From Nitrosopumilus sp. (lineage in GTDB: Archaea > Thermoproteota > Nitrososphaeria > Nitrososphaerales > Nitrosopumilaceae): a stretch of DNA of 64,000 nucleotides. This document shows, piece by piece, positions 39,257 through 59,800 of this stretch (within the stretch, counting starts at the first letter, position 1; each line of letters opens with the position of its first letter). Below the pieces are notes generated by a model. The model saw only the letters and a list, made by a program, of their open reading frames with translations. It was not told where the DNA came from and did not search any database. Location of the stretch: the NCBI GenBank assembly GCA_965207075.1, contig CBDBLO010000002.1, positions 736,001 through 800,000 of the forward strand. The letters run 5' to 3'. Both the position numbers and the translations under genes were made by a program.

Positions 39257-40079
39257 ACTGAATCTACACCTTGGAGAGTTCGAATCGAAAACAGCTCGAA
39301 CTCGGTACTGCTGCAAATTCGTGATATGGGCACGGCGGTTTTCGGATCTTCTCTGAAAGCGACGCGCAGTCATTCTGATCCCAATTGCGCCTGACCGCTG
39401 CCAGCAGCTCTAACATGCAGTCATGCAACTCCTTGTGCCTTTCAAGTTCGGCCAAGTATTCTTTGACTGCAGTCACGTGGGCTACAAGCGTCGAGTCGTC
39501 CGAGTTGAATCCTGCCCAAAAATCCTCAAACAGTCTGTTCAGCCTGTCGTGTATTTTTCCGGGCTACTTCATCGCGTTCTCAGCATGACAAAGGTTTCGT
39601 TGGTTTCGGCAATATCATTATTTATGATCTCAAGGACCTCTTTGGATACCGTGAAGGTCTTAGTGAATGCGGTGAACTCATGTCGTTATTTCTCAAAGGT
39701 AGCCTTGAGTTGTTCGTCCATGTCTCCGTCCGTGCTGGAGATATTAACTTCTGGATTGCTGCGGGTTTTGTCAAATCTGTGTCTGTCTGTGATCCTCCGA
39801 TTGTACTGACTTTGTTATATACGAACTTCGAGATACTGGAACGTGTGTCAGGCCGCAATCTTGCTGATATTTGGAGCGGCCCTCTCCGTAGCAGGGGTTA
39901 TGGCGATGGGTGTTGATGATTCCGGAGTAGTCGTTGGACTGCCGCTCTTGCTAGGGGGATTCTTGGCAGGCGGTGTGGGTGCAGTCCTTCTCATCAAAGG
40001 CGGTTGACTGTTCGTTTCAGAGAAGATTCAGAATCCACACCGTGCCAATCTCACGAATCCACAGCAATGCCGATTCTCA

Positions 40080-40151
40080 GGCGCTGGTGCGAATTCATGA
40101 TACGGATCAGAGTCTCGACTGAAATCCATATCACAAATTCGTACCCACGCC
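40080..40151. repeat. 72-bp imperfect hairpin repeat, copy A
   Basis: GGTGCGAATTC…GGATCAGAGTCTCGACT…AATTCGTACC; direct repeat of 41039-41110. Confidence 0.85.
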
Positions 40152-40467
40152 CCTAAACGAAACCTTTGTTGATCATACTAATTGGCACACCGCATGGTTG
40201 CAACATCCAAGGAGTTCCAAACAGGTTCACGTACGAGAGGAGCTCCTGGCCTTGGGGACAAACGTGACTGGGAGGGGATGGTTCCTGACCATGTACGTGG
40301 GCGCGTCTGCTGATTTCGAACGTAGTGTCGGCAGGGCCTCGGTAGCTCCAGGCGAAAACCGCATACAGGATCAAGGGATTGTACGCGGCCGTCTCGACCC
40401 AAAAAAACTATTTTCCACCTATCAACTTGTCCCGAGTGGAATTATCTACTGCGAATGTTCCAGTTTC

Positions 40468-40992
40468 TTATTTTTCGTTTAGTTTTGTGGATAGGTTTTT
40501 GATCTCCGTTTCAATTAGTTCTAGTAACGTTTCCTTTATGTCGTTAAATTTTTGATTAAATTCATATTCATATCTTTCTACCGGCGGTAAACTCTCAATA
40601 TATTCTTGCGTTTTCATCATCTCTTCTTCAATCTTTTCATCGGGATAATCCTCTTGTTCTGGTTCTTGAATATAATACGGGTGCTGTTTTTCAAATTCTT
40701 CTATTTCTTGTGATTTGACATCTACAAACTGTTTAACTTTATCATCAATCCAAACTCCTTTGTCTGAATTAAAAAATGCCTGCAAATCAGAAAAAGCTTC
40801 ATGACCCTTTTCGGATTTCTTAATAATATACCTCATGCGCATATAAGATTCAACAAAGTACTGCTGTTTTGACATGTTAAGAATTTTTGTAGAATTAGTA
40901 ATCGCTTTCCTATGAAAATATACTGAAACGCCTAGAATTGCCCCAGATACAACTAAAGCGAATACAGAAATAATAGAAGTAAACGATTCCAT
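40468..40992 (-). CDS. AT-rich hypothetical protein with N-terminal TM
   Basis: 174-aa ORF between the two hairpin repeats. Confidence 0.7.
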   Translation of the reverse strand: MESFTSIISVFALVVSGAILGVSVYFHRKAITNSTKILNMSKQQYFVESYMRMRYIIKKSEKGHEAFSDLQAFFNSDKGVWIDDKVKQFVDVKSQEIEEFEKQHPYYIQEPEQEDYPDEKIEEEMMKTQEYIESLPPVERYEYEFNQKFNDIKETLLELIETEIKNLSTKLNEK

Positions 40993-41038
40993 CAGTATAG
41001 TCCGTCATGGATTGATGTATTTGAATGATCTGTCGACG

Positions 41039-41110
41039 GGTGCGGGTGCGATTTCATGATATGGATCAGAGTCTCGACTAAAATCCATGTCACGAATTCA
41101 CACCAGCACC
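41039..41110. repeat. 72-bp imperfect hairpin repeat, copy B
   Basis: GGTGCGGGTGCG…GGATCAGAGTCTCGACT…CACACCAGCACC. Confidence 0.85.
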
Positions 41111-41153
41111 GATTCTCATATACTTTAAATATCTCTAGTTACATCACTTGTGA

Positions 41154-41444
41154 TTGCGAAAAGGGAGATATTTTCACTATAAGCTAGTTCTGTTACAATA
41201 TCTGATGGACAGCAATTTCATTATAAAAATAGGTGAAGATTTCACTGAATCTACTGGCCTGGCACAAGAACTATGCATTCCTATTAGCTCGTGGTATGAT
41301 ATAACGCGCGATCTAGCAAAATCTTGCCAGATCATAATAAGGCGTAAAAACCGTCAAGTTGCAGGAAGGAGTGTTTACATGGTTCATGAAATACAGCTTA
41401 CAAAGGATGGGCTAGAGTTTTTAACTCGTTTTAGTCATGCGTAA
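41154..41444 (+). CDS. Small winged-helix-like protein (possibly truncated)
   Basis: LAQELCIP.SSWYDITRDL…IQLTKDGLEFL, MarR-like ending. Confidence 0.5.
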   Translation: MRKGRYFHYKLVLLQYLMDSNFIIKIGEDFTESTGLAQELCIPISSWYDITRDLAKSCQIIIRRKNRQVAGRSVYMVHEIQLTKDGLEFLTRFSHA

Positions 41445-41931
41445 AAATTGCATGATCGTTACGAGTTATCTGATTTTTTATTAATGCATAAAGTGCCGCA
41501 CCAGAACATGCCAGTGTTAGACTCTCACTATAATTTAGAATCAAGTCTGCGTATGGAAATGTAATATCAAAGTAATTCTCAATAACCATGCCTATAATTC
41601 TTCTATCGGACTAATATATTTTCTTAGTTGGGTACTAGTGCAAGTTCGGGATATGGAATCTAGGCACGGCATTGTTACCTTATTTTAATCCTATTGTTGA
41701 CAGGGACTGTGAAGTCTACGTGAGTCGGGACAGGCTGTAAAGTACGTGAGTTGCGGATTTCTCTGAGGTGCTGGAGCAGTCATTAAACAGGCACGATCTT
41801 AAACCTCAATTTCCTCAGCCTCATAACTGGAAACAGATGGCAGTTCTTGTATGCCGCTATGTATCCCGACACCTGATAACTCTACTACCACGAGTCCAGA
41901 AGTTAATATACAACGTCCCTGTAGGCGTGAC

Positions 41932-42657: not shown

Positions 42658-45600
42658 GTGTCTTTTCAACAAGTTTCGTTGATGCACGCACCGTTCGAGC
42701 GCGACGGCCTCTTGCATGCGCGTGCAAGCCGCCGTCCCCGGGGGGGGGGGGGTGCAACAAAGGCGTCCTGCATAATTGTACTCCTTGCGGTCCTGGTGGC
42801 CTTGGGGTCTGCCGACCATTCCTACGCGCAGACCAGCGTTTCAGACAGGGACGTCGTTCTTCCGGGCAACGACGCCCCCCGCGGCATCTGGTCCGACGGC
42901 ACCACCATGTGGGTCGCAGACGATACTGATGACAAGATCTACGCCTACACGCTCGCCGACGGGACCCGCGACGACACCAAGGAGTTCGACCTCGACCCGG
43001 AAAACGCCGACCCTGCCGAGATCTGGTCCGACGAGACCACCATGTGGGTCGCAGACTATATTGACGGCAAGCTCTACGCCTATACGCTCGCCGGGGGCGC
43101 CCGCGACGTGGACAAGGACATCACCCTTGCCGACAGCGACACCCCTGCAGAGGACAACGGCAGTCCCTGGGGCATCTGGTCCGACGGCACCACCATGTGG
43201 GTCTCAGACTATGCTGACGGCAAGCTCTTCGCCTACACGCTCGCCAACGGCACCCGCGACACCTCAAGGGAGTTTGACCTCCACGCCGACAACGCCGTCC
43301 CTTATGAAATCTTGTCCGACGGCACCACCATGTGGGTCACAGACATTTTTGATGGGAAGCTCTTCGCCTATACCATATCCACCAAGGCCCGCGACGCCGC
43401 CAAGGACATAGACCTCCACAGTGACAACGTTTCTCCTTACGGCACCTGGTCCGACGACACCACCATGTGGGTCGCAGACGATGTCGCTGACAAGCTCTTC
43501 GCCTATACCATATCCACCAAGGCCCGCGACCCTTCCAAGGACATGGACCTCCACGGCGACAGCGGCGACCCGTGGGGCATCTGGTCCGACGGCACCACCA
43601 TGTGGGTCTCAGACTGGCGTGACGACAAGCTCTACGCCTACGCGCTCGACGGCGGCGCCCGCGACGACACCAAGGACATGGACCTCGCTGCGGCCAACGA
43701 AGACCCACGCGGCATCTGGTCCGACCGCACCACGATCTGGGTCGCGGACGCTGTTGCTGCCAAGATCTACGCCTATACGCTCGCCGACGGAACCCGCGAC
43801 CAACCAAGGGAGTTTGACCTCCACGCCGACAACGACGCCCCCCGCGGCATCTGGTCCGACGGCACCACCATGTGGGTCGCAGACTTAAATGATGACAATC
43901 TGTACGCCTATACGCTCGCCAACGGCACCCGCGACGGCACCAGGGACGTCGACCTCGCCGCCGGCAACTCCGATCCTCACGGCATCTGGTCCGACGGCAC
44001 CACCATGTGGGTCGCAGACTTACTTGATGACAGGCTCTACGCCTATACACTCGGCGGGGGCGCCCGCAGCGACACCAAGGACATAGACCTCCACGGCGAC
44101 AACGGTTCTCCTGCCGGCCTCTGGTCCGACGGCACCACCATGTGGGTGGCAGACCATGGTTCTGACAGGCTCTTCGCCTATGCGTTCCCAAGCGGCGGCG
44201 TGCCGGACGGCTCCCGCGACTCCGCAAAGGACGTCGGCCTTGACGACGTCAACGCCAACCCAGAAGGCATCTGGTCCGACGGCACCACCATGTGGGTCGC
44301 GGACTTGGCTGAAGAAAAGCTCTACGCCTATACGCTCGCCGACGGCACCCGCGACACCTCAAAGGACGTCGACCTCTACGCCGACCCCCGCGGCATCTGG
44401 TCCGACGGCACCACCATGTGGGCCGCAAACTCTATTGACGACAGGCTCTACGCCTATACGCTCGCCAACGGCACCCGCGACACCTCAAGGGAGTTCGACC
44501 TCCACAGCGCCAATACCAACCCCGCCGGCATCTGGTCCGACGGCACCACCATGTGGGTCGCAGACAATCACGATGACAAGCTCTACGCCTACAAGCTCTC
44601 AGACGGCACCCGCGACACCTCAAAGGAGTTCAACCTCCACAGCGCCAATGACAACCCCCGCGGCATCTGGTCCGACGGCACCACCGTGTGGGTCGTCGAC
44701 GATGGTGACGACAAGCTCTACGCCTACAGGCTGTCAGACGGCAGCAGGGACGCGTTGCGGGATTTCGACCTCCACGGCGCCAACGTCGATCCTTTCGGAG
44801 TCTGGTCCGACGGCACCACCGTGTGGGTCGCAGACAATACTGATGACAAGCTCTTCGCCTACGAGCTCCCGGACAGCAGGGACGCCGCAAAGGAGTTCGG
44901 CCTCGTCCACGACAACCCCCGCGGCCTCTGGTCCGACGGCACCACCATGTGGGTCGCAGACATTGTTGATGCCAAGCTCTTCGCCTACAAGATCTCCAAC
45001 GGATTCCGCGACCCCGGCAGGGACGTCGACCTCCACGCCGACAACTTCGCGCCCTACGGCATCTGGTCCGACGGCATAACGATGTGGGTATCAGGCGAGG
45101 ATGGTGACAATCTCTTCGCCTACACCATGTCCACCAAGGCCCGCGACTCTTCCAAGGAGTTCGACTTCGCCGCCGACAACAACGATTCCGCCGGCATCTG
45201 GTCCGACGGCACCACCATGTGGGTCTCAGACTGGCGTGACGACAAGCTCTACGCCTATACGCTCGCCAACGGCACCCGCGATGCCGGCAAGGACATAACG
45301 CTCCACGCCGACAACGCCGACCCCCGCGGCCTCTGGTCCGACCGCACCACGATCTGGGTCGCGGACGTTGATGATGACAAGCTGTACGCCTACAAGCTCT
45401 CAGACGGGAGCCGCGACCAGTCAAGGGAGTTTCCCCTCCACGGCTCCAACGCCGACTCCTCCGGCGCCTGGTTCGACGGCACCACCATGTGGGTCTCAGA
45501 CTGGGGTGACGACAAGCTCTACGCCTACGCGGCCAGGAGCGTCGTCGACGCCGGCGCCGCCCCGGCAGTCGACGCCGGCCCTGACCTGGCAGTCGACGAG

Positions 45601-48600
45601 GGCGGCTCGGTCACCCTGAACGGCACGGCGACCGACCCCGACGGCGACGACCTTACGTACTTTTGGACCGCCGGCCCCGGCGCGCCCGGCGGCGCCATAA
45701 CCGACGGCACCGCGCTCAACGCCACGTTTGTCGCGCCGCTGGTCGCCGCCGACACAGAGTTCGCCCTCACGCTTACGGCCAGCGACGGCGCGGACGCGGC
45801 ATCGGACACCGTCACCGTGACGGTCAGGGACGACGGGTTCAAGCTCGACCCGGAAAACGGCATAGCCACCGGCCTCTGGTCCGACGGCACCACGATGTGG
45901 GTCGCAGACCTTGCCGATGAGAGGCTCTACGCCTACGCGCTCGACGGGACCCGCGACTCTTCCAGGGACGTCCAATTTACCACATCCACGACCAATGCCC
46001 TACAAATCTGGTCCGACGGCACCACGGTGTGGGTCGCAGACGAGGTTTTTGGCAACATCGAAGCTTATGAGTTCTCGACCGGCGAGCCCGACGACGACAA
46101 GGACATAGACGTCGACACCGTCACCTACGGCGCACCCGGGGGGGTCTGGTCCGACGGCACCACGATGTGGGCCGCATCTGATAGCAGGCACCTCATCGCC
46201 TACGCGCTGGCCGACGGCACCGTCGACGCCGGCAGGGGGTTCGCCTTAGCCGAAAGCGCCATTCCTTCAGATGACAACGGCGATCCAACCGGCATCTGGT
46301 CCGACAACACCACCATGTGGGTCGTCGACGATAGTGACGACAAGCTCTTCGCCTACACGCTCGACGGGGGAGCCCGCGACCCCGGCAGGGAGTTCGACCT
46401 CGACCCAGGCAACGACGATCCCAAAGGCATCTGGTCCGACGGCACCACCGTGTGGGTCTCAGACAGTATTGATGACAGGCTCTACGAATACCCCCTGCCG
46501 GACAACGCGCTCCCGCAGGTAGACGCCGGATCAGACCGCACGGCCTACGAGGGCGACACGGTCACCCTGGCGGCCATAGCGACGGACAGCGACGCCGGCG
46601 ACGCCCTTACGCACTACTGGACCGTCAGCCCGGCCACGCCGGCCGTCGCCATAGGCAACGGCACCGCGCTGAGCACCGCGTTCGTCGCGCCGGACGTCGA
46701 CGCGGACACCGCGTTCACCTTCACGCTTACCGCAAACGACGGCACGGCAGACGCCACCGACACCCTTACCGTGACGGTCCGCGACGGCGCGCCGCCTGAC
46801 GGCCCACGCGACATCGCGAGGGAGCTTGACCTCGCCGAAAGCGCCTTTCTCATAGAGGACAACGGCGATCCTGCCGGCGTCTGGTCCGACGGCACCACCG
46901 CGTGGGTCGCGGACTGGGGTGAAGATAAGCTCTACGCCTACACGCTCGGCGGGGGCGCCCGCGACCAATCAAGGGAGTTCGACCTCGACAGCGCCAACGT
47001 TTTACCCGGAGGCGTCTGGTCCGACGGCACCACCGTGTGGGTCGCAGAAACGTCTGTTGCCAAACTCTTCGCCTACTCGCTCTCAAACGGCACCCGCGAC
47101 ACCGCAAAGGAGTTCGACGCCGACGGCCACTTTTTTATCAGTGGCATCTGGTCCGACGGCGCCACGATGTGGATCTCAGACTCGAACATGGGCAAGCTCT
47201 TCGCCTACTCGCTCTCAAACGGCACCCGCGACGGCACCAAGGACGTCGGCCTCGCCGCCGGCAACTCCGATCCTTACGGCATCTGGTCCGACGGCACCAC
47301 CATGTGGGTCGTAGACCAACTTGGTGATAAGAAGCTCTTCGCCTACACGCTCGCCGACGGCGCCCGCGACCCCGGCAGGGACGTCGACCTCCACGAGGAC
47401 AACGCCGACCCTTACGGTGTCTGGTCTAATGGCACCACCGTGTGGGTCGTGGACAACGCTGATGACAAGCTCTACGCCTATGCCCTGCCGGACAACGCGC
47501 TCCCGCAGGTAGACGCCGGATCAGACCGCACGGCCTACGAGGGCGACACGGTCACCCTGGCGGGCATAGCGACGGACAGCGACGCCGGCGACGCCCTGAC
47601 GTACTCTTGGACCGTCAGCCCGGCCACGCCGGCCGTCGCCATAGGCAACGGCACCGCGCTGAGCACCGCGTTCGTCGCGCCGGACGTCGACGCGGACACC
47701 GCGTTCACCTTCACGCTTACCGCAAACGACGGCACGGCAACCGTAACCGACACCCTTACCGTGACGGTCCGCGACGGCGCGCCGCCTGACGGCCCCCGCG
47801 ACATCGCGAAGGAGTTTGACCTCGCCGAAAGCACCTCTATTGAAGAGGACAACGGCGATCCTTACGGCATCTGGTCCGACGGCACCACCGTGTGGGTCGC
47901 AGACAAGGGTGATGAGAAGCTCTACGCCTACACGCTCGGCGGGGGCGCCCGCGACCAACCAAGGGAGTTCGACCTCTACGAGGACACCATCAATTTTTCC
48001 GGGTATAACCAATCTCCTTTCGGCATCTGGTCCGACGGCACCACCGTGTGGGTCGCAGACTATACTGATGACAAGCTCTACGCCTACGCGCTCGCCGACG
48101 GCGCCCGCGACCAACCAAGGGAGTTTGACCTCCATGCCGACAACGCCGATCCCACCGGCGTCTGGTCCGACGGCACCACCGTGTGGGTCGCAGACAATGG
48201 TGATGACAGGTTCTTTGCCTACGCGCTCGCCGACGGCACCCGCGACCAACCAAGGGAGTTTGACCTCCACGCCAACAGCACCGCTCCTGCCGAGGACAAC
48301 GCCGATCCAACCGGCATCTGGTCCGACGGCACCACCGTGTGGGTCGCAGACGGTACTGATGCCAAGCTCTACGCCTACACGCTCGCCGACGGAACCCGTG
48401 ATGCCGCCAAGGATGTTAGCCTCGACTCCGACAACGCCGATCCCACCGGCATCTGGTCCGACGGCGCCACCGCGTGGGTCGCAGACTTAAGTGATGACAG
48501 GCTCTACGCCTACACGCTCCATCCCAACGATCCCCCTGCAGTCGACGCCGGCTCAGACCAGACAGTCGACGAGGGCGACGCGGTCGCGCTGGCCGGCACG

Positions 48601-50127
48601 GCGACTGACCCCGACGGCGACGACCTCACGTACTCCTGGGCCGTCAGCCCCCCCACCCCGGACATCACGATAAACGGCGGCGACACCCTGAGCCCCACCT
48701 TTACGGCCCCAGAGGTCGACGCGGACACCGAGTTCGCCTTCACGCTCACCGCCAGCGACGGCACGGCCGCGGCGTCAGACGCGGTAACGGTAACAGTCCG
48801 GCACGCCAACGCGCCCCCGCAGGTAGACGCCGGGGCGGACCGCACGGCCTACGAGGGCGACGCGGTCGCGCTGGCCGGCACGGCGACTGACCCCGACGGC
48901 GACGACCTCACGTACTCCTGGGCCGTCAGCCCCCCCACGCCCGCCATCACGGTAAGCGGCGGCGACACCCTGAACCCCACCTTTACGGCGCCGGGCGTCG
49001 ACGCCGACACGGCCTTCACCTTCACGCTCACCGCCAGCGACGGCACTGTAGATGCCGCCGACGCCCTCATAGTGACGGTCCGCAACGTCGGCGCGCAGGA
49101 GCCCGTCGCCGACGACACGCCGGAAAGCGCCCTCACGGTCAGGGCGGGGCCGGCCCAGGTGGTGCCGGAGGGCGGCACGGTGGTGCTGTCGGGCGCCGCC
49201 GCGTCCCCGGGCGGAGGAGACATCGCGTACGCGTGGAGCCACAACGGCCCCCCAGCACTGGCGCTCTCCGGCGCCGCCTCCCAGACCGCCAGCTTTACGG
49301 CGCCCCGGGTGGACCGCGACTGGCACGTCACCTTCAGGCTGACGGCAAGCGACGGCGAGCACTCGGCGTATGACACCGTGCTGGTCATAATCAGGGACAT
49401 GCAGGCGGCGCGGCAGCAGAACGCGGCGCCGTCCCTCGCCCTCCCGGGCGGCCCGTACGTGCAGCTCATGAGGGGCGCCGCCTACCAGGGCCCCTCGTGC
49501 CACGACGCCGAGGACGGGATTATCGCGGGCATCTCCTCCACGGGCGCGGTCGACACCGGGACCCCGGGCACCTATACGGTCACGTACACCTGCACCGACA
49601 GCGGCGGCCTCTCGGACTCCGCGTCGCAGACCGTGGTGGTACACGCCTACAGGGCCCAGGTCGTCATGGGCCCGCCGAACCCCGCGATACTCGAGGTGGG
49701 CGCCCCCTACTCGGACCCCGGAGCCTCCTGCGAGTTCCCCGACGGCTCAAGCGGCCCCGCCGCCGTGGCGCGCAGCACCGTGGACACGTCGAGGCCCGGC
49801 ACGTACCTGGTCTCGTACGCGTGCAGCGGCCCGGAAGGCGAGGTCCTTGCCGCCGAGTCCAGGCGCGTCATAGTCAAGAGCCCCGGCGCCGACCTGGCGC
49901 CGGTCATACACCCCCCGTCGCCGATGACCATAACCGCGGGCCAGGCGTGGACCGACCCCGGCATAACCTGCACCGACGACCTCGACCCGGACCCCGTCGT
50001 GAGGGTGGCGGCCACGGACCTCGACATCTGGACGCCGGGCGAGTACCGCGTATACTACACGTGCACCGACGACGCCGGGAACGGGGCCACGGCCTCCCGG
50101 GTAGTCACGGTCGCGCCGCGGCAGTAG
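42658..50127 (+). CDS. Giant secreted surface protein: 35 'GIWSDGTTMWV' beta-propeller blades, PKD/REJ-like domains, C-terminal Ig-like (DUF5011-like) domains
   Basis: Signal peptide …LVALGSADHSYA; ~45-aa repeats in blocks of 20+5+5+5 separated by P.VDAG.D..V.EG..V.L domains; VDT..PGTY.V.Y.C.D repeats. Confidence 0.9.
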   Translation: MSFQQVSLMHAPFERDGLLHARASRRPRGGGGATKASCIIVLLAVLVALGSADHSYAQTSVSDRDVVLPGNDAPRGIWSDGTTMWVADDTDDKIYAYTLADGTRDDTKEFDLDPENADPAEIWSDETTMWVADYIDGKLYAYTLAGGARDVDKDITLADSDTPAEDNGSPWGIWSDGTTMWVSDYADGKLFAYTLANGTRDTSREFDLHADNAVPYEILSDGTTMWVTDIFDGKLFAYTISTKARDAAKDIDLHSDNVSPYGTWSDDTTMWVADDVADKLFAYTISTKARDPSKDMDLHGDSGDPWGIWSDGTTMWVSDWRDDKLYAYALDGGARDDTKDMDLAAANEDPRGIWSDRTTIWVADAVAAKIYAYTLADGTRDQPREFDLHADNDAPRGIWSDGTTMWVADLNDDNLYAYTLANGTRDGTRDVDLAAGNSDPHGIWSDGTTMWVADLLDDRLYAYTLGGGARSDTKDIDLHGDNGSPAGLWSDGTTMWVADHGSDRLFAYAFPSGGVPDGSRDSAKDVGLDDVNANPEGIWSDGTTMWVADLAEEKLYAYTLADGTRDTSKDVDLYADPRGIWSDGTTMWAANSIDDRLYAYTLANGTRDTSREFDLHSANTNPAGIWSDGTTMWVADNHDDKLYAYKLSDGTRDTSKEFNLHSANDNPRGIWSDGTTVWVVDDGDDKLYAYRLSDGSRDALRDFDLHGANVDPFGVWSDGTTVWVADNTDDKLFAYELPDSRDAAKEFGLVHDNPRGLWSDGTTMWVADIVDAKLFAYKISNGFRDPGRDVDLHADNFAPYGIWSDGITMWVSGEDGDNLFAYTMSTKARDSSKEFDFAADNNDSAGIWSDGTTMWVSDWRDDKLYAYTLANGTRDAGKDITLHADNADPRGLWSDRTTIWVADVDDDKLYAYKLSDGSRDQSREFPLHGSNADSSGAWFDGTTMWVSDWGDDKLYAYAARSVVDAGAAPAVDAGPDLAVDEGGSVTLNGTATDPDGDDLTYFWTAGPGAPGGAITDGTALNATFVAPLVAADTEFALTLTASDGADAASDTVTVTVRDDGFKLDPENGIATGLWSDGTTMWVADLADERLYAYALDGTRDSSRDVQFTTSTTNALQIWSDGTTVWVADEVFGNIEAYEFSTGEPDDDKDIDVDTVTYGAPGGVWSDGTTMWAASDSRHLIAYALADGTVDAGRGFALAESAIPSDDNGDPTGIWSDNTTMWVVDDSDDKLFAYTLDGGARDPGREFDLDPGNDDPKGIWSDGTTVWVSDSIDDRLYEYPLPDNALPQVDAGSDRTAYEGDTVTLAAIATDSDAGDALTHYWTVSPATPAVAIGNGTALSTAFVAPDVDADTAFTFTLTANDGTADATDTLTVTVRDGAPPDGPRDIARELDLAESAFLIEDNGDPAGVWSDGTTAWVADWGEDKLYAYTLGGGARDQSREFDLDSANVLPGGVWSDGTTVWVAETSVAKLFAYSLSNGTRDTAKEFDADGHFFISGIWSDGATMWISDSNMGKLFAYSLSNGTRDGTKDVGLAAGNSDPYGIWSDGTTMWVVDQLGDKKLFAYTLADGARDPGRDVDLHEDNADPYGVWSNGTTVWVVDNADDKLYAYALPDNALPQVDAGSDRTAYEGDTVTLAGIATDSDAGDALTYSWTVSPATPAVAIGNGTALSTAFVAPDVDADTAFTFTLTANDGTATVTDTLTVTVRDGAPPDGPRDIAKEFDLAESTSIEEDNGDPYGIWSDGTTVWVADKGDEKLYAYTLGGGARDQPREFDLYEDTINFSGYNQSPFGIWSDGTTVWVADYTDDKLYAYALADGARDQPREFDLHADNADPTGVWSDGTTVWVADNGDDRFFAYALADGTRDQPREFDLHANSTAPAEDNADPTGIWSDGTTVWVADGTDAKLYAYTLADGTRDAAKDVSLDSDNADPTGIWSDGATAWVADLSDDRLYAYTLHPNDPPAVDAGSDQTVDEGDAVALAGTATDPDGDDLTYSWAVSPPTPDITINGGDTLSPTFTAPEVDADTEFAFTLTASDGTAAASDAVTVTVRHANAPPQVDAGADRTAYEGDAVALAGTATDPDGDDLTYSWAVSPPTPAITVSGGDTLNPTFTAPGVDADTAFTFTLTASDGTVDAADALIVTVRNVGAQEPVADDTPESALTVRAGPAQVVPEGGTVVLSGAAASPGGGDIAYAWSHNGPPALALSGAASQTASFTAPRVDRDWHVTFRLTASDGEHSAYDTVLVIIRDMQAARQQNAAPSLALPGGPYVQLMRGAAYQGPSCHDAEDGIIAGISSTGAVDTGTPGTYTVTYTCTDSGGLSDSASQTVVVHAYRAQVVMGPPNPAILEVGAPYSDPGASCEFPDGSSGPAAVARSTVDTSRPGTYLVSYACSGPEGEVLAAESRRVIVKSPGADLAPVIHPPSPMTITAGQAWTDPGITCTDDLDPDPVVRVAATDLDIWTPGEYRVYYTCTDDAGNGATASRVVTVAPRQ
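42740..42752 (+). repeat. G13 homopolymer in 5' coding region
   Basis: CCCC-G13-TGCA upstream of the signal peptide codons. Confidence 0.9.
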
Positions 50128-50373: not shown

Positions 50374-51009
50374 GTAACTGGTTGGGTTGAGCACGAGGCC
50401 AGACTTTCCAGATCATCAGATCTATCGTACTGGGCACGCACAGACGCAGTGTCAAGCCCCTCCGGGGTCAAGCTGCTGCGAGACGAGCTCGCACGGGTCA
50501 CGGCGGGGGTCAAAGAGGGATGCGGCCCTGGAGCAGCTGAACATACAGAACGAGCGGATGAGGGGTCAGCTGGGCGGGGGAGGCGGGCGCATCACATGCT
50601 ACGAGAGCCCGCACAGCCCGCCGTCTGCCAGCCCCATCCCCGAGAGGCGGAAGAAGGCGGCCCCAAGGAAGGACCCGGCGGACTACAGGAGGCCCGGGCG
50701 GAGGCCGGGGCGCGGGGGCGTCTCGCGCGGCCGCAGGCCGTCGCCGACCGTACACCACGTCCCCGGCAAGTGCGGGGGTGCGGCCGCGTCACGGAGGCCC
50801 CGTCGCTGTACGAGGACGGCGTCGGGGTTGCAGTCAGGGGGACGTCACTCGGGCCCGTCCTCGCCTCAAGGGCGGTGCAGATGTGGGAGAAGCACGTGAG
50901 CACGAGCGGGATCGCGGACATACTGAACGACGCCTTCGGGATTCAACTCGGGAGGGCCGCGGCGCAGGGCGCGCTGGCGGCCGCGGCGCACGAATTGGCA
51001 CCAGCGCCT
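50374..51009 (+). pseudogene. Truncated IS66 copy (left part)
   Basis: Starts GTAACTGGTTGGGTTGAGC; near-identical to the reverse complement of ~53150-53814. Confidence 0.85.
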
Positions 51010-51028
51010 GTAACTGGTTAGAATACCT

Positions 51029-52425
51029 GATAACCCCTTCGACGTACCAGCCGTGATGAAGCGACCCCTGGCGGACTATGGGACAATGCACCCTTTGGTT
51101 AGAATGGGGCAATCCGAGCTGCTGTATGACTGGGCTGCGAGCCCTGATAGGAGTGTGCAGCTTCCGTTTCGTCAAAAATGCATCCGACCAGGAGGTGATG
51201 GCAAAGGATGAAGATGGGCATAGGAATCGACATCAGCAAGAAAAAGTGTGACTATTGCATAATCAACGGCAGGGGAAGGGTCCTCTAGCGTGGACAGTAT
51301 CTTAACACGCAAAAGGATGCAGGGCGGTGTGCGCGGACCATACTTGCCAAGTATGGCAGGATGGGAAACTGCACGGCCGCGTGTGGGACCACCGCCAACA
51401 TGTGGATTGCGACGGCCGACGCATTTGAGCGCGCCGGCATTGGGATCAAGCTTGCCAACTCATACAAGATGGCGCTGATCAACAAGACCGGAAAAAAGAC
51501 CGACAAGATCGACGCCGAGAAGATAGCGCAGATACTCAGGATGGGCTCGATACCGGAGTGCTACGTGCCGCCGGCGCGCACGCGCGGCGTCAGGAACATG
51601 GTGCGGCAGCATGTCCGTCTGGTGCAGGCAAGGACCAGGGTGGTAAACCGGGTACACAGCCTGCTTGACGCGCACGGCAAGACCGTGCATGCGGCCAACA
51701 TGTACTCGCACAAGGCACTGTCCTACCCGGACTCGCTCAGTCTTGGCGACGCGCAGGACGACTTTGTGCTGAGGCAGTGTGTCAGAAGGATGAGGCACTA
51801 CACAAGCGAGATTACGGAGATCGACAGGCAGTTGGAGGCAGAGGCAGCGCAGAACGAGGATGCAAAGCTGCTTGCCAGCATGACCGGCATTGGAATCTAC
51901 ACGGCCATGCTCCTGGCATCTGAGATATCCGAAATATCAAGGTTTGAGACTCCAAAACAGATGATCTCGTGGGCGGGACTGTGTCCGACCGTCAGGCAGT
52001 CCGGCAACGAGATGCGCCTTGGAAGGATAAAGAAGCTTGGCACCGACGGCCTGGTCAACTGGGCGGTGTGCGAGGCGGCCAACGTGGCAGTCAAGTACGA
52101 CGCGAGGATGAAGGCCGCATACGAGGCCGCATGCAGGCGGCACGCTGGCAAGCACATGCTTGGGATCGTTGTGGTGGCCCACAAGATGGTCACCATAATG
52201 TGGCACATGCTGAAAAACCGAACCCCATACGAGTCGCGCAACGATGATCTGTACAGGCGCAAGCTGGCCAGACTGGAGAAAAGACGGCAGGGCAAGGCAT
52301 AGCCACTGCACATGCACGTGTACATACCAACCTCTAGCGTTAGCTATAAACAGCATGTCCCCCTCCTAGGCGTGAGACGGATGGAATATCGGAAAGATCC
52401 GGCTCGTACGTTCAGGGGTTATCAT
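51029..52425 (+). mobile_element. IS110-family element
   Basis: Terminal inverted repeats GATAACCCCT..ACGTAC.AGCCG; DEDD recombinase gene; no TSD. Confidence 0.85.
51208..52302 (+). pseudogene. IS110 DEDD recombinase with in-frame TAG at 51286
   Basis: GIDISK, KTDKIDA, GIG..TA, SWAGLCP…QSG; stop at 51286-88 and expected catalytic Glu appears as Gly (ACGTT). Confidence 0.85.
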
Positions 52426-53893
52426 AGGAGGAGGTTCCGCTCAGGATATTCGGCGGCATGCCCGACACGTTGAGGCCCCGCTTCCTCCACGTCGGCACGC
52501 ACGTCACTATGTATGAGAACGTCCTGGCGCCCTCCAGGCTGGCGATCCTGAACCGGATCTTCCGGGCCATGTCCACCTTCCTCAGCATCCGCTCGGACTC
52601 GTTGTTGGTCGGGTCCACCCCCGGGCAGTTGACGAACGTGAACAGGAAGGGCGCGGCGTTGGCAGGCTTCGTGGCAAACGTTGCGCCCGCGGCGCGCAGG
52701 CCGAACCGCCGCGCGATGGCAGCGGCGGCCGCGGCCGCTTCCATGGGCCCCGTGCCCACCTCGGGGCCGCCGGGGCCGCGCCGCCCGAGCTTGGCGTCGC
52801 GGTACAGCCGTACCAGAGCCGTGCAGCGCGGCCAGCTCCGGGGCCGCTTCCCCGTGCTCCCTGGCCGGCGCGCCGGACTCGCGCAGTATGTGGGCCCGGC
52901 ACCGCTGCCTGGCGGCATACCCGGCATACCCGGAGTACCCGTCGCACGCCGGGGGCTTGTCGCGGTACGGCTCGACGCGGTCCATCACGACGCCTGCGCG
53001 CGACGGCGGGGCGTGCACGACAACGGAGTCCCCGCCAATGACGGCCCACACGTAGCCGCCCCCGCGCGGGAACCCGTACGTCGTCTCGTCGGCCTTGAGG
53101 TTCGGGGCCCCGCCCAGCGACCCCGCGATGCCGTCCCTCTCGGCCTGCAGCGCCCTGCCCGCGGCCGCCAGCGCGCCCTGCACCGCGGCCCTTCCGAGGT
53201 TTGTCCCGAAGGCGTCGTTCAGAATGTCCGCGATCCCGCTCGTGCTCACGTGCTTCTCCCACATCTGCACCGCCCTTGATACGCGGACGGGCCCGAGGGA
53301 CGTCCCCCTGACTGCAACCCCGACGCCGTCCTCGTACAGCGACGGGGCCTCCGTGGCGCGGCCGCACCCCCCGCACTTGCCGGGGACGTGGTGTACGGTC
53401 GGCGACGGCCTGCGGCCGCGCGAGACGCCCCTGCGCCCCGGCCTCCGCCCGGGCCTCTTGCAGTCCGCCGGGTCCTTCCTTGGGGCCGCCTTCTTCCGCC
53501 TCTCGGGGATGGGGCTGGCAGACGGCGGGCTGTGCTGGCTCTCGTAGCATGTGATGCGCCCGCCTCCCCCGCCCAGCTGCCCACTCGGCTGCCCGTTCTG
53601 CACCTTCAGCTGCCCAATCTCGATCCTCGTCTGCCCGTTCTGCACCTTCAGCTGCTCCGGGGCCGCATCCCTCTTTGACCCCCGCCGTGACCCGTGCGAG
53701 CTCGTCTCGCAGCAGCTTGACCCCGGAGGGGCTTGACACTGCGTCTGTGCGTTCCCAGTACGATAGATCTGATGATCTGGAAAGTCTGGCCTCGTGCTCA
53801 ACCCAACCAGTTACAGCAAAATGGGGGACAGGCGGGTTCTGGTCCGCACCTGCAATGGCGGCCCGCTCATACTGAAACCGCCGCAGCCGCATC

Positions 53894-56800
53894 CTACGAC
53901 TGGGTGGATAGCCTGACGAAGTTGGAGGCGCCCGACTCGCCGTGCCCGTTGATTGCGATTATCCTGAAGACGTAGACGGTCTCCGGGTCGAGGCCGGCGA
54001 CCGCGTAGGAGGTGCCCGGCGCGCCGGTGTCCTCGACCAGCACCGAGAGCCGGTCCTCGGTGGCCGGCGTCCTGGACATTATCTTGTAGCCGGTTATCGA
54101 GCCGTCACCGGGGTCGTCCCAGGTCAGGGTGATGGTCGCGTTGGCGGAGGTCGCCTGGAGGTTCCGGGGGGCGGCCGGCGGGCTGGCCGGGATGTCGTTT
54201 GTGGCGGCGACCGCCGCCGTGCCGGAAGACAGCCTGACGAAGTTGGAGGCGCCCGACTCGCCGTGCCCGTTGATTGCGATTATCCTGAAGACGTAGACGG
54301 TCTCCGGGTCGAGGCCGGCGACCGCGTAGGAGGTGCCCGGCGCGCCGGTGTCCTCGACCAGCACCGAGAGCCGGTCCTCGGTGGCCGGCGTCCTGGACAT
54401 TATCTTGTAGCCGGTTATCGAGCCGTCACCGGGGTCGTCCCAGGTCAGGGTGATGGTCGCGTTGGCGGAGGTCGCCTGGAGGTTCCGGGGGGCGGCCGGC
54501 GGGCTGGCCGGGATGTCGTTTGTGGCGGCGACCGCCGCCGTGCCGGAAGACAGCCTGACGAAGTTGGAGGCGCCCGACTCGCCGTGCCCGTTGATTGCGA
54601 TTATCCTGAAGACGTAGACGGTCTCCGGGTCGAGGCCGGCGACCGCGTAGGAGGTGCCCGGCGCGCCGGTGTCCTCGACCAGCACCGAGAGCCGGTCCTC
54701 GGTGGCCGGCGTCCTGGACATTATCTTGTAGCCGGTTATCGAGCCGTCACCGGGGTCGTCCCAGGTCAGGGTGATGGTCGCGTTGGCGGAGGTCGCCTGG
54801 AGGTTCCGGGGGGCGGCCGGCGGGCTGGCCGGGATGTCGTTTGTGGCGGCGACCGCCGCCGTGCCGGAAGACAGCCTGACGAAGTTGGAGGCGCCCGATT
54901 CGCCGTGCCCGTTGATTGCGATTATCCTGAAGACGTAGACGGTCTCCGGGTCGAGGCCGGCGACCGCGTAGGAGGTGCCCGGCGCGCCGGTGTCCTCGAC
55001 CAGCACCGAGAGCCGGTCCTCGGTGGCCGGCGTCCTGGACATTATCTTGTAGCCGGTTATCGAGCCGTCACCGGGGTCGTCCCAGGTCAGGGTGATGGTC
55101 GCGTTGGCGGAGGTCGCCTGGAGGTTCCGGGGGGCGGCCGGCGGGCTGGCCGGGATGTCGTTTGTGGCGGCGACCGCCGCCGTGCCGGAAGACAGCCTGA
55201 CGAAGTTGGAGGCGCCCGATTCGCCGTGCCCGTTGATTGCGATTATCCTGAAGACGTAGACGGTCTCCGGGTCGAGGCCGGCGACCGCGTAGGAGGTGCC
55301 CGGCGCGCCGGTGTCCTCGACCAGCACCGAGAGCCGGTCCTCGGTGGCCGGCGTCCTGGACATTATCTTGTAGCCGGTTATCGAGCCGTCACCGGGGTCG
55401 TCCCAGGTCAGGGTGATGGTCGCGTTGGCGGAGGTCGCCTGGAGGTTCCGGGGGGCGGCCGGCGGGCTGGCCGGGATGTCGGTTATGGTGACGACCGCCG
55501 TGTCGGAGGCGGAGGCGCCGTGTTGGTCGGTGGCCGTCAGCGTCAGGGAGACTGCGGCAGTCGAGTTGACCTGCGGGGCGGCAAAGCTGGTGGCCGGCGA
55601 GGTGGCGTTCTCAAGCTGTATGGCCGGGCCGGTGGCGTTGTGGGTCCACAGGTAGGCCAGGCCGTCGCCGTCCCGGTCGGTGGCGCCGCCCGACAGGGCG
55701 ACCGTCTCGCCCTCGTTGACGGACTGGTCGGGGCCCGCGTCGACTGACGGCGGGGAGTTGTAGCCGCGGACCGCGCCGAGGGCGGCCGCGTCCACCACGT
55801 ACGACTGGTCCTCGCCGGTGGGAGCGAGGGCGGCCAGCGGATTGCCCGCCAGGTCGGCCACGGCGCCGTACGGGGCGATGCCCAGGCCGTAGGTGCCGTT
55901 CCGGGCGGCCGAGACGGTCACGGTATACTCGCTGCCGCCGCCGGTCAGGCCGGTCACGGCGGCGCCGGCGTCGTCGTACCCGACCTCCAGTGTCCATTCG
56001 TTGAGGACTCCCGTATCGGCCTCCACAAGGTCGTGCACGCGCAGCGTCCAGTCTCCCGCGGTCCGGGCGCCGGCAAGGTCCGGCGCGTACGTGCCCGCGA
56101 TGCCGCCTGCGCCTGCGCCGGCTGGATCGTGCAGCAGCGCGGCCCTTCCGTCCGGCGAGATCAGATCGATCCTGAGATCGCTGGCGTAGGGGTGCGTTAC
56201 GTTCAGGCGGACCGAGACGGCCTTGGCGGGTCCGAGGTCGGGGACGCTGATCGCGTCGAGCACGGGGCTTCCGGCATCGTACTGCCTCGGATTGCCCGGG
56301 CCCTTCTGGTGCAGGGGCGGGATGGACGGGTGCGTGGAACGGCTGGCGTCCGGTATGGCGAGCGACGGCGCCGACGTCTGCGAGAACCGCCCGGGCGTGA
56401 CCGCGTCGCCGGACACGGCCAGAAAGTCGGCCATGTCCACGCCGGCGACCGGCTCGCTGAAGGACACGTCGAATGACAGCAGGCGGTCCGGGGCGGCCTG
56501 CGCCGCCCCGCCGCTCCGCGTGAAGGACTTGACGGTCGGGGGGCCGGTGAGCACCGTGTACGACTGGTCCTCGCCGGCGGGGGCGGTCCCGGCCAGCCGG
56601 TTGCCCTCCGGGTCGGCTATGCCGTTGTCCGGGGCGACGTCCAGGCCGTAGGTGCCGTCCCGGGCGGCCGAGACGGCCACGGCGTACTCGCTGCCGCCGC
56701 CGGTCAGGCCGGTCACGGCGGCGCCGGTGTCGTTGTAGGAGACCGTGACGGTCCACCCGTTCAGCACGCCCGAGTCCTGCCGGTCAAGGTCGCGCACGTG

Positions 56801-59800
56801 GAGCGTCCAGTCGCCTGCCGCCTCCACGCCGGCAAAGTCCGGCTCGTACGTCCGGCGCAGGTCCTGGCCCGCCGCGCCCGCGCGGTCGTGCAGCGCCCTG
56901 GAGGTTCCGTCCGGCGAGACCAGGCTCACCCTGAGATCGCCTATGAACGAGTGCGTTATGTCGAGGTCGACGGATACGGAGGCGACTGCGCCCGGGCGCC
57001 CAACCGCGACGGCGTCGCGGATCGTCGTCCCGAACGGTATGGGCGCAGACGGCGTGCTGGAATAGGCGGATCTCTCGTATTCGAGCGGCTCCTCGAGGAC
57101 CGGCACAAAGTCGCCCCGGTCCACCCCGGTGACCGGCCTGCTGAAGTTGACGTGGAACACCACGTCCCCGCTGCCGGTGATCCGGCCCTCGGGGGATCCC
57201 TTGGTGATGGACTCCACGGCGGCGGCGGGTGCCTCCGGTTCGTCGGCGGCGACCTCGATGGCCAGGTCGGCGGTGGCGGCGGCAATCCCGCTGCCGCCGA
57301 CGCCGTAGACCGCGCCCCGTCCGATGTCCAGCTGCGGGGACGCCATCAGGGCAAGGTCGGCCCGCTGCCGGGCGGAGAGCGTGGCCGTGACGGTCGGGCC
57401 CGAGGATCCCCCGGGCAGGGCCCCGTCCAGCGCGATGCCCCCCTCGGACCGGCCGGCGTCCCTGATGTGGAGGCGGTCGTAGTGGACGGTCCCGTTGAGC
57501 GGCTCGCTGAAGGTGATGGACAGCCGTCCGGTCGCGGCCGAGTATGCGGCCGAGGAGAACTTTGGCCCTCCGGCCGACCCTCCCGCCCCCTCGAAGGCCA
57601 CCTCGAGCACGTTGGAGGCGGTGTTGGCGTTGCCGGCCGGGTCGGAGACGAGGCCGGCCGGTATCCGGGCGGCGACCAGGCCGTCGCCGGCCGGGGTCAG
57701 CGTGAAGGCGAAGGTGAGGTTGCCCGAGACGTGCCGCAGGCCCGAGGCGGTGCCGCCGGTGACGGACACGTCGTCGCCCAGGTCGAAGGTGGCCGCGTCG
57801 ATGGCCTCGCCGAAGTCGACGTCCACCCGGACGGAGCCGGCGCTGGTCGGGGAGGGGGAGGCGGTGCTCAGCGACGGCGCCGGCCCTGTCGTGTCACGGA
57901 CGGCTATCGGGTTGCCGGCCGAGGCCGCTATCGGGTTGCCGGAGGCGTCGGAGACGGCGCCCGCGTCGATGTCCAGCTGCGGCGCCGCCAGGTCCGCGAG
58001 GGATGCGCGCTGCGGGCCGGTGAGGGTGACGGCCAGGGAGCGGCCGTCGACTGACGGGGCGGCCCCGGCCAGGGTCACGCCGCCGCTGCCGCCGGACCGG
58101 CCGGCGTCCCTGATGTGGAGGCGGTCTAGGTGGACGGTCCCGTTGAGCGGCTCGCTGAAGGCGATCGCCAGCGTGCCGTTGGCCGCGTGGTATGCGGCCC
58201 AGAGCGGGGCGGGCGGGGACGAGTCGCCCCCCACGGTGACCAGGACGGTCCGTGAGTGGGTCGCGGCGCCGGCCCCCTCCCCCAGGACGCCCCTGGCGGT
58301 GATGGTGACGTTGTAGCTGCCCGGCGCGGGGTCCAGGCCGGCCTTGACTGCCAGCGCCCCGTCGGCCACCACGAAGAGGCCGCCGCCCTCCGCGGACTCG
58401 TCCACCGCGTAGGCGGGGCCCCGGCCGTCCAGCCAGGCGTTCTGCGCCCGTATGGGCAGCGCGTCGCCGGCGGCCGAGATGGTTGTGTCGTCCAGCACTA
58501 TGTACCAGCCGCCCAGGTTCCGGGCGAAGCTGCCGGCTACAAGGAGCATCTCGGACATGTCGGCGGCCGCCGAGACGTTCCATCCGGATATGTCGCCGTT
58601 GAAGGCGCCGGCGCCGCTGAACATCCGGCTCATGTCCGTCACCGAGGAGACGTCCCAGTCCGAGAGGCTGCCGTTGAACTGGGAGGCGAACCTGAACATC
58701 CCGGACGCGTCCGTCACGGCGGACAGGTCGGGGGCGTCGGTCGCCCTGTACACCATGTTTGACGCGCCGGCAAACGCGCCGCTCATCGACCTCCACCTGA
58801 TGTCGCCCCACTGCTCTATCGACTTGAGCTTTAGCGCGTTGGCGGGATGGTGTGGCAGGTGGATGCTGGCAAGGTCCCCGTATATGCTGACGGTGTAGGT
58901 CCCGGGCGACTCGTACACGTGCGAACTGTCCCCGGAGACGTCGGTGTCGACGCTGGCGTCGCCCCAGGTGACCGTGTAGGTGCCCGCGGCGTCCCCCACC
59001 GTGATTACCACGTACTCGTCGTCTCCGGTCGTCTGCCAGGTGGTGACGAACGCGGCGTCGGGCGCGGTGCCGGCCGGGGCGGCCGTGACGGTGAGGGCCA
59101 GCAGGTTTGACGCGGTGTTGCTGTTGCCCGCCGGGTCCAGCACGGCGCCCTCGGGGATGGAGACCGTCAGGTTGCCCGCCGCCAGCCCGTACACCTCGAA
59201 GGTGAACTCCCTGGCGGTGCCCGCAGCCGGCGCGGGGGCCGACACAGTCCCGCCCGACGCCGACACGTCCGAGCTGCCGAACGTGGCCGCGTCCACCGGC
59301 TCGCCAAAGTCCACCGAGAAGGCGACGCGGTCGGCGCTGGTCGGGGACGGCTCGGCGGTGGAGATCGAGGGGGACGGGCGGGTCCGCTCCACGAGCATCA
59401 CGTACGGGTCCGACGCGGTGTTGCTGTTGCCCGCCGGGTCCAGCACGGCGCCCTCGGGGATGGAGACCGTCAGGTTGCCCGCCGCCAGCCCGTACACCTC
59501 GAAGGTGAACTCCCTGGCGGTGCCCGCAGCCGGCGCGGGGGCCGACACCGTCCCGCCCGACGCCGACACGTCCGAGCTGCCGAACGTGGCCGCGTCCACC
59601 GGCTCGCCAAAGTCCACCGAGAAGGCGACGCGGTCGGCGCTGGTCGGGGACGGCTCGGCGGTGGAGATCGAGGGGGACGGGCGGGGCCGCTCCACGAGCA
59701 TCACGTACGGGTCCGACGCGGTGTTGCTGTTGCCCGCCGGGTCCAGCACGGCGCCCTCGGGGATGGAGACCGTCAGGTTGCCCGCCGCCAGCCCGTACAC

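Follow-up and report, generated by a model that had tools for sequence, protein, structure and literature searches.

Positions 51022–52428 of the 64,000-nucleotide (nt) stretch of Nitrosopumilus sp. analyzed here (contig CBDBLO010000002.1, positions 736,001 to 800,000; hereafter the window) are, judged by sequence, a decayed copy of an insertion sequence of the IS110/IS1111 family in a Nitrosopumilaceae archaeon. This copy, here named c1, has landed within an IS66-like element, in its right terminal repeat, and we consider it highly probable that c1 belongs to an RNA-guided element with a bridge RNA (also called seek RNA) in its left end. The left non-coding end would encode an RNA of about 120 nt, in which an outer stem surrounds two arms with an internal loop in each. 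The coordinates of all features are given in Table 1.

The membership of c1 in the family follows from its recombinase. The open reading frame (ORF) at 51361–52302 carries two domains known to Pfam, DEDD_Tnp_IS110 (PF01548, E 1e-13) and Transposase_20 (PF02371, E 1.8e-20), and the flanking ORFs carry DDE_Tnp_IS66 (PF03050, E 2.1e-13). Together with the recurring motif GTAACTGGTT(A/G)G, these domains bear out an original prediction, made from the sequence alone, of an archaeal IS110-family element in an IS66-like terminal repeat. The recombinase matched the solved IS621 and ISCro4 recombinases by sequence, with weak similarity to IS621 (E ~1e-11). Its best annotated protein matches were haloarchaeal, transposases of the ISHvo10 family included, at ~33% identity. 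In an intact relative, L045 (a gene of 363 amino acids), the catalytic residues D, E, D, D and the serine of the SG motif could be aligned to IS621.

In c1 this catalytic set is incomplete: a Gly stands where relatives and IS621 have the Glu of the DEDD set, and a stop codon interrupts the gene. The recombinase had been predicted to be inactivated by a stop, and the in-frame TAG at 51286–88 agrees with this. The other copies in the genome of the window (2.23 Mb in 2 contigs) are likewise damaged. Copy c2 is 82% identical and contains stop codons, a frameshifted stretch and an Asn in place of one Asp; c3 is internally deleted and c5 consists of a right-end fragment only. An intact recombinase gene of this element family was not found in the window's genome. 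By its sequence, the window copy is unable to move by itself.

To define the ends of the element we used the genome of a relative (G001). Here, many copies occupy terminal repeats of a DDE_Tnp_1 element 1.27 kb in length, and many ends of that element are present without insertion as well. The uninterrupted end reads TAGTCTGTTG|CACAACT and the occupied end TAGTCTGT-TG-AACACATGATAACC...GGTTAACATAGG-TG-CACAACT. According to this comparison, the element extends 6–7 nt beyond the left repeat and 4 nt beyond the right one, and a 2-nt core, TG in G001, is found once in the empty site and on both sides of the inserted element. Since occupied and uninterrupted targets set the ends in these relatives, we place c1 at 51022–52428, with the core AG on either side (51020–21 and 52429–30). 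The subterminal repeats TGATAACCCCT and AGGGGTTATCA are perfect over 11 bp. Contigs assembled from public sequencing runs match the right end of c1 up to 52430 or 52431 and diverge from there into other flanks; one of them runs from a c1-type right end into the interior of an IS66 left repeat. This divergence and the uninterrupted G001 target ruled out two other assignments: a core AT, and a right end placed at 52431 with AG after it at 52432–33. Among the contigs of four sequencing runs, which were searched as contigs only, none showed a circle junction or skipped the element.

The original prediction had placed the element at 51029–52425, with true terminal inverted repeats, a palindromic circle junction and target guides split between the 5' end (TGGTTAGAAT and TGATAGGAG) and the 3' end (CCTCCTAGG). 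Every string on which it relied is present where it was placed: TGGTTAGAAT at 51096–51105 (identical to 51015–51024), TGATAGGAG at 51145–53, CCTCCTAGG at 52362–70 and GCTATAAA at 52343–50. The inverted repeats GATAACCCCT (51029–38) and AGGGGTTATC (52414–23) exist as well. However, the uninterrupted target of the relative puts the start 7 nt further left and the end 3 nt further right, and the two repeats are subterminal, as in the IS1111 group. The palindromic junction (...TTATCAT|GATAA...) does not follow from the corrected ends, by which the circle junction would read ...TTATCATAGG-AG-AATACCTGATAA.... The empty site had been given as ...AATACCT|AGGAGG, whereas the right repeat of another IS66 copy without insertion reads GTTACCGGTT-AG-GTTCCGCTC, i.e. 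GTTACCGGTTAG|GTTCCGCTC. In that copy the uninterrupted end GTAACTGGTTAG runs directly into the IS66 interior. Taken with the behavior of TGATAGGAG and CCTCCTAGG in relatives, described below, these results leave very little probability for an element with those ends and split guides.

Structural analysis of the left end revealed a conserved scaffold. RNAalifold alone, applied to 18 aligned left ends, returned three stems closing two loops. A covariance model (R1) was built from seven high-GC copies and a hand-written structure. In the 23 sequences aligned to this model 95.6% of the cells were paired, and both-sided changes occurred in 18 of the 27 pairs. None of 500 shuffles came up to this result, and controls with slid partners were paired at 30–51%. 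All four guide segments are located upstream of the gene, within 51055–51173, and not, as had been proposed for the target matches, distributed over both ends; the right non-coding end is 126 nt long. Both the DNA sequence and the co-variation are those of a two-loop non-coding RNA whose strands match target and donor, core included.

The 3' strand of the target loop forms the left-target guide. It reads TGGTT-AG-AAT in the window, TCGCAAC-AG-AAT in c2 and TCTGT-TG-AAT in G001. A segment of the 5' non-coding region had been proposed as the target guide, with its change in step with the left flanks of relatives named beforehand as the check, and this is what was found. In 18 elements the guide was compared with its own flank at 7 variable positions, which gave 117 matches out of 126. 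Cross-pairings averaged 3.28 of 7, and the observed sum was reached in 0 of 100,000 permutations. The 18 elements were taken from distinct left ends; duplicates of L045 (L046, L051 and L062) and elements that are cut (L082, L093, L080 and L089) were left out. With one element for each of the 8 target classes, 54 of 56 positions matched, a result equalled only by the identity permutation among 40,320.

A later test ran the model over 151 genomes of the family with one locus per genome. Twenty-four of the 26 loci were used (the flank of L120 is cut and L114 repeats L081). The 7-nt guide was found within one mismatch in the upstream 70 nt at 18 of these 24 loci, 9 of them exact, mostly 40–44 nt before the start of the model. 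Permuted guides did so at 1.99 loci on average and at 8 at most.

The donor loop follows the ends of the element itself. Its 5' strand occurs as TGTAT, TGTGT and TGTTT, and these pair off with the element starts AATACA, AACACA and AAACA in relatives. The 3' strand, which reads ATAG(G/A) and the core, tracks the right ends: the window has ATAGG-AG, and relatives have ATAGG-TG or ATAGA-TG. The string TGATAGGAG, originally read as a second target match, is therefore a donor guide, because it matches the element's own right end and core and tracks the right ends of relatives; this also counts against the split-guide version of the element. The core in the target loop equalled the core in the donor loop in all 36 rows, out of 49, in which both could be parsed. 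The window copy and L049 have AG, c2 and c3 show AG in the target loop only, and every other row has TG. Regarding L049, its segment 2670–2721 shares the right end and right flank (...TTAACCATATGTGGCAATCACATCGCGC) with segment 1448–1488 of L091, even though the two are different elements: L049 is of the window type with AG guides, and L091 is of a TG type that is 58% identical. At its right junction L049 carries TG instead of AG, so that it looks recombinant or mis-assembled.

For the 5' strand of the target loop, which varies strongly between elements, complementarity to the six bases after the core was scored in 16 distinct element-target pairs, namely those with exactly one exact right end 1000–1600 nt downstream. 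Here, 63 of 96 positions were complementary, compared to a mean of 28.2 and a maximum of 56 in 20,000 permutations. Nine pairs scored 5 or 6 of 6; at the lower end were L121 (1), L135 (2) and L095 (0). A candidate right-target guide downstream of the donor loop (TGTGCA) was rejected, since it is conserved whatever the target.

Several observations weigh against an RNA-guided element programmed for this site, and they are gathered here. The pair counts come from alignments fitted to the covariance model, which favors the structure, and the relatives used for co-variation are kin and not independent samples. Single-sequence folds of three copies were no better than shuffles (z -0.8 to -1.2). A scan of four loci against Rfam gave no match at E up to 1, and no RNA run with the stretch was found among the public sequencing runs searched. 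In c2 and c3 the donor loop is degenerate. The flank register was taken as the best match within a distance of 70–112 nt; it coincides with the conserved element start. In the later test, six of the 24 loci missed with 2–3 mismatches (L113, L125, L127, L128, L132 and L134). Two of the loci, L125 (G146) and L126 (G066), have flanks identical over more than 40 nt and different guides (AATTGTG and CCTACTG), only one of which matches; the common flank suggests an inherited insertion. L061, which is outside the counted sets, carries the guide CGCCATG at a TCTGTTG flank, a mismatch. Finally, the right-target guide of the window copy fits its own right flank at 1 of 6 positions. Its loop would pair with TCCGCC, and TCCGC is located 5 nt further into the IS66 sequence.

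Some of these points would also suit a site choice by the protein only, for example via the subterminal repeats, with the internal copies of target and donor as binding-site mimics at the DNA level or as relics of recombination. Such an explanation agrees with the lack of RNA among the public runs searched and with the mismatch between the right half of the window site and its guide. It does not account for four separate segments and the core co-varying with target and donor, nor for the position of these segments in the loops of a scaffold that is kept by compensatory changes. Additionally, the protein is homologous to recombinases for which the use of RNA has been shown, as far as the parts of PMC11208160 and PMC11187229 drawn on here describe it. 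We therefore regard site choice by the protein only as most improbable.

The right half of the site deserves separate consideration. The proposal that the element is programmed against IS66 ends was upheld for the left half of the target, which fits the guide of the window copy at 7 of 7 positions, and not for the right half. Because the right-target guide fits at 1 of 6, the window copy was either matched at the left half alone, or this guide drifted once the copy was dead. This leaves room for a variant of the RNA-guided reading in which the IS66 repeat is a non-cognate, half-matching landing site or the guide has changed since. The variant would be in line with a close variant in public contigs that carries a different right-target loop (TGGTCAACTAT), with the existence of other right flanks, and with half-match insertion as reported in the abstract of a preprint (10.64898/2026.08.31.748434). 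However, IS66-type repeats border at least three separate insertions of the lineage, namely those of the window copy, of L049 and of the contig that runs into the interior of an IS66 left repeat. Moreover, TCCGC(C), the complement of the loop, does occur inside the IS66 sequence, shifted from the register by a few bases. We consider a non-cognate site possible, if rather doubtful.

The right end contains a candidate promoter. By pattern, 7 of 14 relatives, each a member of the high-GC group, have a TATA-like box at a distance of 84–88 nt from the right end, and by eye TTTAAG or CTTAAG occupies the position of the box in three more. About 25 nt after the box, at the position expected for an archaeal start, the sequence CTAGGC(A/G)(C/T)GGA is conserved. 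From this arrangement we infer a candidate archaeal promoter which faces outward and would read into the left end once the two ends are joined. The motif CCTAGG/CTAGGC recurs in relatives and copies with other targets and is overlapped by CCTCCTAGG, which had been interpreted as a match to the target junction. As the overlapping motif is conserved in relatives with other targets, the match is coincidental, and the junction used for that comparison is not the real empty site. The conservation of this motif between the box and the expected start, whatever the target, speaks once more against guides in the right end.

Taken together, RNA-guided insertion would proceed as follows for intact members of the lineage. 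After joining of the ends, the outward TATA-like box of the right end would drive both the RNA and the recombinase gene, and only then. The 3' strand of the target loop (TGGTT-AG-AAT in the window) equals the left flank and core in sequence and would pair with the bottom strand, while the 5' strand would pair with the right flank, to which it is complementary. In the donor loop, the 5' strand would pair with the first bases of the element, and the 3' strand (ATAGG-AG) corresponds to its last bases and the core. The RNA-bound DEDD/Ser recombinase would align the joined ends of the circular element with the target, and strand exchange at the core would leave the inserted element with a copy of the core at either end.

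Table 1. Features of the window around the IS110/IS1111-family element c1 (positions are those of the window)
Feature	Position	Strand	Basis
Truncated IS66-like copy A; left terminal repeat GTAACTGGTTGGG at 50374	50374..50986	+	90% identical to inverted 53159-53814
Outer 12 nt of the right terminal repeat of IS66-like copy B (GTAACTGGTT-AG), i.e. left target and core AG (51020-21)	51010..51021	+	same 12-mer type starts other IS66 ends
IS110/IS1111-family element, copy c1	51022..52428	+	ends by homology to relatives with uninterrupted target, 11-bp repeat, contig divergence
Left extension AATACC of c1	51022..51027	+	
Left subterminal repeat TGATAACCCCT	51028..51038	+	
Bridge/seek-RNA scaffold (predicted)	51055..51173	+	RNAalifold closing stems; covariance model R1, 131.5 bits for c1; compensatory changes
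Scaffold outer stem	51055-63 with 51165-73	+	
Target-loop stems	51065-68/51106-09 and 51080-82/51091-93	+	
5' strand of target loop, right-target guide	51069..51079	+	complementary to right flank in relatives
Left-target guide (TTTGGTTAGAAT), 3' strand of target loop; TGGTT as in left flank, AG as core, AAT as in the opening 3 nt of the element	51094..51105	+	identity to 51015-51024; flank co-variation
Donor-loop stems	51116-22/51157-63 and 51132-35/51141-44	+	
Right-donor guide (TGTATGACT), 5' strand of donor loop; its TGTAT is the complement of ATAC(C), 51023-27	51123..51131	+	follows element start in relatives
3' strand of donor loop (TGATAGGAGTGT), left-donor guide; ATAGG-AG equals right end ATAGG (52424-28) and core AG	51145..51156	+	follows right end in relatives
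Recombinase pseudogene; TAG at 51286-88, GGG (Gly) at 51385-87 in place of the catalytic Glu	51208..52302	+	read from ATG 51208; relatives; role of Glu from PMC11208158
TATA-like box GCTATAAA (52343-50), then conserved CTAGGCGTGAG ~25 nt later; candidate promoter	52343..52376	+	pattern in relatives; function inferred
Right subterminal repeat AGGGGTTATCA	52414..52424	+	
Right extension TAGG of c1	52425..52428	+	
Core AG, second copy	52429..52430	+	window sequence and public-run contigs
Body of IS66-like copy B, transposase frame broken; left terminal repeat 53814-53801	52431..53814	-	DDE_Tnp_IS66 in two frames

The target of c1 was identified through the other IS66-like ends. IS66 ends usually start with GTAA. 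The motif GTAACTGGTT(A/G)G is an IS66-like terminal repeat which is also present at 50374 (plus strand) and 53814 (minus strand) of the window and in a second copy from another part of the genome, to which copy B is 96% identical. Since it begins these three other IS66-like ends, 51010–51021 is the outer part of a right terminal repeat of such an element. For the same reason a tRNA D-arm, suggested as left flank by a match with 2 mismatches in a tRNA-like sequence, was ruled out. The transposase of copy B (52412–53892, minus strand) matches the DDE_Tnp_IS66 profile at positions 13–164 and 237–283 in different ORFs, and copy B is probably dead as well.

Other copies are seated in other transposon ends. 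The copies c2 and c3 are inserted in a motif ...CACGAATTCGCAAC-AG-TACC with 16 occurrences by a strict pattern. The motif often forms inverted pairs that bound varied cargo, and one such segment carries a DDE_Tnp_IS240/rve transposase; we take it to resemble the end of an IS6-family element. In total, three kinds of transposon ends were found as targets: the IS66-like repeat, the DDE_Tnp_1 element and the motif of c2 and c3. Because the elements are seated in the terminal repeats of other insertion sequences, they disable other transposons or ride on them.

The surroundings of the insertion contain further repeats. Copies of a ~25–45-nt motif (...ATATCACGAATT(C/T/G)GCANCAGTACC) lie at 50989–51008 and at ~39320–41700 (C2:775323-777650). 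This motif is scattered genome-wide, often as inverted pairs around segments of 0.15–4.6 kb, and one copy lies immediately next to the IS66 right repeat, with the boundary at 51009/51010. The motif has the look of a terminal repeat, either of an IS6-like family or of a family resembling miniature inverted-repeat transposable elements. The whole cluster of insertion sequences is flanked by two giant ORFs, 42658–50127 (2489 amino acids) and 53894–62293 (2799 amino acids, minus strand). The first is made up of dozens of repeats with the motif GIWSDGTTMWVAD. Within the second, five near-identical direct repeats of 321 bp (54129–55655) show as identical plus-strand ORFs of 55 amino acids and as repeated BLAST matches.

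Relatives recovered by protein search came from Nitrosopumilaceae assemblies and metagenome contigs. The RNA model matched in 28 of 151 genomes of the family, belonging to 11 of 27 genera, with up to 24 copies per genome in some of them; with the unpublished G078 set aside, the count is 27 of 150. Given this wide spread and copy number, the predicted bridge RNA is a real part of the mobile DNA of these genomes. In G081, which has 24 model matches, the locus L116 shows an exact right-end motif only ~210 nt after the RNA, and the flank CTGCGTAA is complementary to the right-target loop TTACGCGACAT. By its sequence this suggests short non-autonomous derivatives in G081. The genome of the window contains a fourth, diverged match to the model on contig C1 (C1:22632-22750, i.e. 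L110 1501-1619; 43 bits). A recombinase gene is absent from the next 140 nt read, the guide is unlike its flank, and a CATAGA-like end follows ~100 nt downstream. This remnant may be a miniature derivative without the recombinase gene.

The findings extend recombination guided by bridge or seek RNA, so far worked out in bacterial elements, to ammonia-oxidizing archaea. The evidence lies in a naturally occurring set of over 20 distinct guide/target pairs and in a change of the core dinucleotide. Intact relatives such as L045 are candidate compact recombinases with a different loop layout and core. Among the papers searched, none describing bridge RNAs in this group of archaea was found; the supplementary tables of PMC11208160 may list such elements. 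IS110 recombinases as such are common in archaea, with 662 in 2,835 genomes according to the part of 10.1101/2024.06.21.599552 consulted.

The comparison with known systems is based on the sections of PMC11208160, PMC11208158 and PMC11187229 drawn on here. As in IS621 (Durrant et al. 2024, PMC11208160; Hiraizumi et al. 2024, PMC11208158), the recombinase is of the DEDD and Ser type, and the RNA would come from the left end, upstream of the recombinase gene. [quoted passage not shown] However, the strand which base-pairs to the DNA's bottom strand is the 5' strand of the loop in IS621 (PMC11208160) and the 3' strand in the window lineage. The subterminal repeats measure 2–3 bp in IS621 and 11 bp here, and the core is CT there and TG or AG here. 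In IS621 the joining of the ends builds a sigma-70 promoter that spans the junction, whereas the window lineage would carry a whole TATA-like box in its right end. With its 11-bp repeat and with the bottom-strand guides on the 3' side, the element falls outside the narrow, IS621-like IS110 group.

In other respects the element resembles the IS1111 group, in which the subterminal repeats are long and the RNA is found in the right end (PMC11208160). The 11-bp repeat lies within the 7–17 bp described for subterminal repeats of this group. The seekRNA elements ISEc11, ISKpn4 and ISPa11 (Siddiquee et al. 2024, PMC11187229) likewise have repeats of ~11–13 bp and short asymmetric extensions. Published IS1111 extensions are 7 and 3 bp, compared to 6 and 4 bp in the window without the 2-nt core, a figure that depends on how the core is assigned. 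In these elements the complement of the top strand precedes the match to the bottom strand in the RNA. The loop strands of the window lineage, with right-target before left-target and right-donor before left-donor, keep to the same rule of PMC11187229. In contrast, the RNA of ISEc11, ISKpn4 and ISPa11 lies downstream of the transposase gene, and that of the window lineage upstream. The few exceptions with upstream non-coding regions named in PMC11187229 are ISMtsp17 (upstream) and ISHvo10 and ISAcp5 (both sides). These IS1111 relatives with a long non-coding region have different hosts and about a third of their residues in common with the window lineage. The window lineage thus has IS1111-type repeats and guide order with an upstream RNA, a layout described only as an exception in the part of the literature cited.

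Insertion into the ends of other transposons has a bacterial counterpart. IS4321 and IS5075, which belong to the same family and have subterminal repeats, are said to have been described by Partridge and Hall in 2003 (cited in PMC11208160 and PMC11187229) as inserting into the terminal inverted repeats of other transposons. As far as their descriptions go, these are bacterial elements directed to the 38-bp repeats of the Tn21 family, whereas the window lineage is archaeal and found in IS66-like, IS4/IS5-like (DDE_Tnp_1) and IS6-like repeats. We tentatively propose, as a possibility more than an expectation, a Nitrosopumilaceae-wide lineage that mixes both published layouts. It would combine long repeats and a guide order of the IS1111 type with a whole RNA in the left end closed by an outer stem, and with a complete archaeal promoter in the right end that is active only after the ends have joined. 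Such a lineage would be specialized in transposon terminal repeats, with all four guides and the core naturally reprogrammed, the latter from TG to AG in the lineage of the window.

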